Assembly: GCF_003334815.1 (NCBI RefSeq)
Contig: NZ_QOWO01000062.1
From: Escherichia coli
Lineage (GTDB): Bacteria; Pseudomonadota; Gammaproteobacteria; Enterobacterales; Enterobacteriaceae
Reading direction: 5' to 3' (one strand)
Length of the DNA: 9,739 nucleotides
The translations under genes were made by a program, and so were the position numbers. The notes beneath the pieces were generated by a model, which saw nothing but the letters and a program-made list of their open reading frames with translations, was not told the DNA's origin and made no database searches. Shown piece by piece: positions 9,427-9,520 of this stretch (position 1 is its first letter; every line of letters starts with the position of its first letter).

Positions 9427-9520
9427 GCGGAGTGCATCAAAAGTTAATTATCACGTAGTCATATTAATATGAGAATGGTTATCATTACAATTGGAAATAA
9501 AATTGTTTCCAATAGACATT
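9427..9520 (-). promoter_or_regulatory. fecIR promoter region (iron-regulated)
   Basis: AT-rich region upstream of fecI. In transcript orientation it reads …TTGTAATGATAACCATTCTCATATTAATATGACTACGTGATAATTAAC…, with sigma-70-like hexamers overlapping a Fur-box-like sequence. Confidence 0.6.
9471..9489. promoter_or_regulatory. Candidate Fur box in the fecI promoter
   Basis: gagaatggttatcattaca matches the Fur consensus GATAATGATAATCATTATC at about 14-15 of 19 positions (by eye). The fecIR promoter is known to be Fur-repressed. Confidence 0.6.

Follow-up and report, generated by a model that had tools for sequence, protein, structure and literature searches.

The Fur operator of the fecIR promoter in the fec locus of Escherichia coli

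The fecIR genes of Escherichia coli are transcribed by sigma-70, and Fur represses both the fecI and the fecA promoters (Braun, Hartmann and Hantke, 2022; PMC9249621). The 1.5-kb fecIR mRNA was described in the same review as being under the control of Fur and not of ferric citrate, and fecIR as being without autoregulation (PMC9249621). The fecI site is among eleven Fur sites with footprints considered by Chen et al. (2007; PMC2189734), and the cluster predicted there, consisting of seven overlapping sites over 59 bp, was placed among the six strongest clusters of the genome (PMC2189734). Two Fur dimers at a spacing of 6 bp bind opposite faces of the DNA. In the model of Chen et al. (2007; PMC2189734), the classical Fur box arises where two 19-bp sites with a 6-bp offset overlap. 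Both fecI and fecR have also been assigned to the Fur-2 iModulon (PMC10164565).

The whole stretch of DNA analysed here, hereafter the window (9,739 nt), corresponds to positions 4508810-4518548 of NC_000913.3, the fec locus of E. coli K-12 MG1655, and its alignment with MG1655 (NC_000913.3) across 9380..9691 gave 0 differences. A megablast search with 8900..9739 as the query found 100% identity to many E. coli chromosomes, with fecR, fecI, ykiE and IS1F as the annotated features. The minus strand encodes fecE, fecD, fecC, fecB, fecA, fecR and fecI, remnants of IS600 and IS911 are also present in the window, and beyond fecI the plus strand carries ykiE followed by the left end of IS1F. The fecI promoter is accordingly a minus-strand element, running from about 9520 down to 9427, in front of the following gene:

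8905..9426, minus strand: fecI coding sequence (ECF sigma factor), from the list of open reading frames and RefSeq b4293, with its ATG at 9426

The fec locus is flanked by IS elements, the IS600 and IS911B remnants being located downstream of fecE (1..992) and IS1F (9663..9739) 236 bp upstream of fecI, and it lies inside the KpLE2 element. The ATG of fecI is not preceded by a recognisable Shine-Dalgarno sequence (9427..9439; sense strand ...tgatgcactccgcATG), which is consistent with the very low abundance of FecI mentioned in the review (PMC9249621).

Published coordinates were converted to the window by subtracting 4508809 from those of NC_000913.3 (v3) and 4506832 from those of NC_000913.2 (v2), with the ATG of fecI as the anchor (v3 4518235, v2 4516258, window 9426), and the v2 and v3 offsets were verified against the gene starts at every locus used. 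The conversion was checked at fecA, where the Fur footprint at v2 4514752-4514789 becomes window 7920..7957 (PMC2189734) and Fur is reported to cover -38 to -1 (PMC9249621); taken together, these place the fecA start at about 7919. The mapping is considered sound because this position agrees with that of fecAp implied by Mendoza-Vargas 2009.

The Fur operator in front of fecI

An original prediction, made from the bases of the window, had named two strings in this promoter region, a close match to the Fur consensus at 9471..9489 (gagaatggttatcattaca) and a second Fur-like half site, aattatcac, at 9446..9454. Both strings are in place. The first is indeed a close match, with 15/19 positions identical to GATAATGATAATCATTATC on the sense strand of fecI, the best value in the window, and 14/19 on the plus strand. 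Values of at least 15/19 arose in 47 of 20,000 shuffles (0.24%) of the 236-bp intergenic region. The sites at fecI and the one at fecA are as follows:

9471..9489, minus strand: classical 19-bp Fur box, sense TGTAATGATAACCATTCTC, 15/19 to GATAATGATAATCATTATC
9468..9486, centre 9477, no strand assigned: primary Fur dimer site (9-1-9 inverted repeat), plus-strand sequence TATGAGAATGGTTATCATT, 23.1 bits
9474..9492, centre 9483, no strand assigned: weaker overlapping Fur dimer site, 7.6 bits, third best in the window, 6 bp from the first
9468..9508, no strand assigned: DNase I footprint of Fur at fecI, NC_000913.2 4516300-4516340 (from Angerer and Braun, 1998; listed in Chen et al., 2007, PMC2189734)
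7938..7956, centre 7947, no strand assigned: Fur site of the fecA promoter, which depends on FecI; 18.4 bits, the second-highest score of the window

The bit scores were obtained with a symmetric 19-bp (9-1-9) Fur matrix trained on 13 K-12 sites with footprint or gel-shift support in Chen et al. (2007), namely those of fhuA, fepA-fes, fepD-entS, entC, gpmA, oppA, cirA, exbB, ryhB, sodA, fhuF, yoeA and nohA; the fecI and fecA sites were kept out of the training. The training sites aligned cleanly and gave leave-one-out scores of 18-28 bits, a range that includes the 23.1 bits of fecI. The matrix scoring by which the predicted box was to be judged bore it out, in that the best match of the window has its centre at 9477 with this score. 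The strongest fecI site predicted by Chen et al. likewise has 23.1 bits and is located at v2 4516309 (window 9477), at a distance of 51 nt upstream of the start codon (PMC2189734). Against a uniform background, 23.1 bits has an exact tail probability of 1e-8 per position. Under the local composition of 64% A+T the value becomes 1.9e-7, from which about 4e-5 such matches are expected in the intergenic region. Throughout 238,696 bp of other K-12 DNA, scores of at least 23.1 bits were attained only by the 8 strongest training sites.

The string first named is 3 bp off the 9-1-9 register, in which 9468..9486 scores best and includes position 9468, the site of a SNP discussed below. With its centre at 9480, 9471..9489 represents the classical register and is, in the model of Chen et al., the overlap of the dimer sites at 9477 and 9483. 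The site at 9483, together with weak matches at 9504 and 9505 (5.7 and 2.0 bits) in the upstream part of the footprint, constitutes an overlapping cluster in a 6-bp register.

Fur binding to this DNA has been observed directly. A 45-bp oligonucleotide that is exactly window 9451..9495 bound Fur as a dimer and a tetramer in an electrophoretic mobility shift assay (EMSA) (Zdziarski et al., 2010; PMC2928814). Iron repression of fecIR, which the original prediction had invoked to account for the box, is thus a matter of published record, as both the binding of Fur and its effect on expression have been reported for the identical sequence (PMC2928814; PMC2189734). The identity of the locus and the strength and conservation of the site were computed here, and Fur binding, repression and the regulatory cascade are taken from the literature on the identical sequence. 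Nothing was found that speaks against function as a Fur operator, and the region 9468..9508 is almost certainly the operator at which Fur acts on the sigma-70 promoter that drives fecIR in E. coli K-12.

The second-best match of the window gives the fecA promoter a Fur site of its own, and the effect of iron is therefore not confined to fecIR but is also exerted directly at fecA. The further layer of citrate control that had been ascribed to the FecI-dependent fecA promoter matches the two-layer control laid out in the 2022 review, in which fecA is driven by FecI/FecR together with ferric citrate (PMC9249621). With sufficient iron, metal-loaded Fur dimers occupy 9468..9486 and the overlapping 9474..9492, with protection extending upstream to about 9508, and bound Fur excludes sigma-70 polymerase from the fecIR promoter such that neither FecI nor FecR is made. 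The fecABCDE genes are then not inducible, whatever the supply of citrate, and Fur additionally occupies a separate site at fecA. Under iron scarcity the operator is vacated and fecIR is transcribed by sigma-70 polymerase at a low level; FecI directs polymerase to the fecA promoter only if ferric citrate on FecA signals by way of TonB and FecR. Seen in this manner, the fecI operator is the textbook first layer of the cascade, with iron acting via Fur on fecIR and citrate acting via FecA, FecR and FecI on fecA.

Promoter elements, the start of transcription and adaptive SNPs

The box had also been said to overlap sigma-70-like hexamers. A promoter scan and Table S1 of Mendoza-Vargas 2009 (PMC2760140) indicate that this is true on both strands, and the elements that concern fecI are:

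9490..9485, minus strand: candidate -35 TTGTAA, PATSER box 'CAATTGTAA', with a spacing of 18 to the -10 and inside the Fur box (PMC2760140)
9466..9461, minus strand: candidate -10 TAATAT, PATSER box 'ATTAATAT', with A at position 2 and T at position 6 (PMC2760140)
9453..9454, minus strand: 5' end of fecI mRNA and probable start, -27 from the start codon (Mendoza-Vargas 2009 Table S1; PMC2760140)
9489..9481, minus strand: alternative -10 region, either TGTAAT (9489..9484) or the extended -10 TGtAATGAT (9489..9481), with a start near 9474-9477

On balance, TTGTAA/TAATAT with a start at about 9453 is somewhat favoured as the working promoter over a start further upstream. Fur bound at its operator would in this case cover the -35 hexamer together with the whole of the spacer, the exact start being uncertain. 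The 5' end at -27 is a single 454 read (frequency 1) of the lowest quality class (3) (PMC2760140), and the 5' end given for fecA in the same Table S1 lies 19 nt downstream of the known fecAp start (PMC2760140). Given this displacement at fecA, the -27 read is regarded as being of low confidence and may be truncated. The supplements of Kim 2012 and of the Cappable-seq study contained no entry or coordinate for fecI.

Transcription under the same Fur operator could instead begin near 9474-9477, in which case repression would result from occupation of the -10 and the start site by Fur. The review, with reference to primer extension by Enz et al. (1995), describes this operator as lying "in the -10 region of fecI" (PMC9249621), a wording more in keeping with a start at 9474-9477, and the -27 5' end, as a single read, could be a truncated product like the fecA entry of Table S1. 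At the level of sequence, TTGGAA-17-TGTAAT presents a 9/12 match. An A at position 2 of the -10 hexamer is, however, near-invariant. TGTAAT is without this A and was rejected by the promoter scan. Its -35, TTGGAA (9512..9507), is missing from the pGN-2/pOCUhvKP1 lineage, where unrelated sequence takes its place and the rest is invariant. Moreover, none of the sequenced 5' ends examined supports 9474-9477, and a start at this position is considered possible but rather doubtful.

A further combination, TTCTCA-17-GATAAT (9/12), has its -10 downstream of the sequenced 5' end at -27 and was for this reason rejected as the main promoter. The Fur site overlaps each of the candidates, covering the -35 and the spacer of TTGTAA-18-TAATAT, the -10 and +1 associated with TGTAAT, and the -35 of TTCTCA-17-GATAAT. 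Neither a start at -27 nor one at 9474-9477 is incompatible with the overlap that had been predicted; under either, the Fur site is situated on core promoter elements, and the prediction of overlap therefore holds.

Mutations that arose in patients provide a further view of the operator. A T-to-C change at 9468, which is the outermost base of the 9-1-9 site, arose during colonisation of the bladder; it reportedly weakened the binding of Fur and raised the activity of fecIR-lux eightfold (Zdziarski et al., 2010; PMC2928814). A second, independent patient-derived isolate was found to have a SNP 23 nt upstream, at 9491, inside the second Fur dimer site (PMC2928814). The SNP at 9468 lowers the matrix score from 23.1 to 20.3 bits, a loss of 2.8. 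Read on the sense strand, it is an A to G change two bases before TAATAT that converts catATTAATAT to catGTTAATAT, and TGtTAATAT (9461..9469), a canonical TGn extended -10, is generated. Because only 2.8 of the 23.1 bits are lost and an extended -10 is created, this SNP may in part be a promoter-up mutation. It is tentatively suggested from the sequence that strengthening of the promoter, and not reduced Fur binding, might account for part or most of the eightfold gain. Separately, the operator might also govern divergent transcription toward ykiE. If the SNP does act as a promoter-up mutation, TAATAT would be identified as the working -10 element, and this extended -10 reading is one small point that may be new.

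Other readings of the sequence

In a further reading, the site could also, or mainly, be the operator for a divergent transcript on the plus strand toward ykiE (9563..9631) and IS1F. Two sigma-70-like combinations on the plus strand, TAGTCA-18-TATCAT (9456..9485) and TTAATA-16-TACAAT (9464..9491), are situated on the Fur box and directed toward ykiE, which is an experimentally validated small protein gene (PMC7815308). Promoter-like hexamers are, however, to be expected in AT-rich DNA (4 were found vs 1.3 +/- 1.0 in shuffles), and a search of the literature found no data on a start site, the expression or the Fur-dependence of ykiE. A role in divergent transcription, which would be compatible with the repression of fecIR that is itself documented, is judged improbable.

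The second half site, aattatcac at 9446..9454, did not withstand analysis as a Fur element. It amounts to a lone GATAAT hexamer that has negative scores and is outside the footprint, and it is entered as follows:

9446..9454, no strand assigned: claimed second Fur half site, not supported; contains a single GATAAT at 9452..9447 of the minus strand

All matrix scores in its vicinity are negative, the best being -6.0, and the segment has one hexamer only, where a positive score or at least three adjacent GATAAT-like hexamers would have been looked for. With GATAAT occurring 0.4-1.3 times per kb of E. coli DNA, the half site is no more than expected by chance; the same hexamer (9452..9447) doubles as the -10 of the promoter-like TTCTCA-17-GATAAT. 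It might nevertheless be imagined to be a functional auxiliary subsite at which Fur, as a roadblock or after polymerising cooperatively, would extend repression to sequences downstream of the start, since the GATAAT hexamer is perfect and the segment is invariant in all of the alleles compared, and since Fur polymerises from strong sites at high concentration, with secondary footprints having been discussed (PMC2189734). The conservation is uninformative because the whole of the 5' leader is equally conserved. With its location beyond the footprint at 9468..9508 (PMC2189734), and with a single hexamer having failed to bind Fur in synthetic-repeat experiments, as cited by Chen et al. (2007; PMC2189734), a function of this kind is very unlikely.

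Finally, a chance resemblance without Fur function, to which the 64% A+T of the region might contribute by inflating matches to the consensus, has a negligible probability in view of the 1.9e-7 per position calculated under this local composition, and it is already refuted by the published footprint, EMSA, mutant reporter and regulon membership.

Conservation and comparison with known systems

The Fur site is conserved beyond the chromosome of E. coli. Four fec alleles of Klebsiella plasmids, two of which are only 87% identical over the region, carry the 23.1-bit site unchanged, with its centre likewise 51 nt upstream of the ATG. The segments 9505..9461 and 9455..9427, including both hexamers and the Fur site, are invariant in these four alleles, and upstream of about 9506 the plasmid alleles diverge completely, which removes TTGGAA (9512..9507). 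The one variable patch in an otherwise invariant 80-bp block of promoter and leader, as compared between E. coli and the Klebsiella plasmids, is 9456..9460 (sense GACTA, GGCTA or AGGCG); read as 9460..9456, it separates the TAATAT hexamer from the sequenced 5' end.

Of 5426 complete E. coli genomes, 2755 contained the promoter region, with an identity of at least 99% in nearly all cases, and the 136-bp promoter region was at least 99% identical in 2609 of the 2779 E. coli records that matched. More than 1,200 plasmids also had the fecI promoter; most of these were from Klebsiella and of conjugative IncF types. Given this number of plasmids and the presence of the region in only about half of the complete E. 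coli genomes, the fec locus behaves as a mobile module that carries its own Fur operator.

Among more distant homologues, a fecI homologue with 45% identity on plasmid pSBC1_2 of Caballeronia sp. SBC1 is preceded by a Fur-like site of 18.9 bits, ATCGCGAATAATTCTCATT (L021 305..323), about 51 nt before the probable GTG start, a distance as in E. coli. The E. coli matrix detected no site at the fecI homologues of Ralstonia and Paracoccus, which says little because the iron regulators and their motifs may differ in these organisms.

The operator in the window is not merely like a known system but is itself already known: it is the same site as the fecIR Fur operator of E. coli (Enz et al., 1995; Angerer and Braun, 1998; Chen et al., 2007), with an identical sequence and coordinates that convert exactly. 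The features of a Fur box that can be read from sequence are all present, and the biochemical ones are documented in the literature for the identical sequence. A genuine, experimentally proven operator was thus recognisable from raw sequence, and no open question is advanced by its recognition.

The operators of fhuA, fepA-fes, entC, cirA, exbB, ryhB, sodA and fhuF have the same 19-bp inverted repeat of the AATGATAATnATTATCATT type as fecI and, like fecI, consist of clusters of sites with a 6-bp spacing that overlap a sigma-70 promoter (PMC2189734). The fecI operator differs from these in that repression falls on a regulatory gene, encoding an ECF sigma factor that has FecR as its partner, and in that the target promoter, fecA, has a second Fur site; as fecI encodes a regulator, repression works through a cascade. 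This logic is shared with pvdS, fpvI and pupI of Pseudomonas and with hasI of Serratia, where Fur represses the gene for the sigma factor and cell-surface signalling gates the activity of the sigma factor (PMC9249621).
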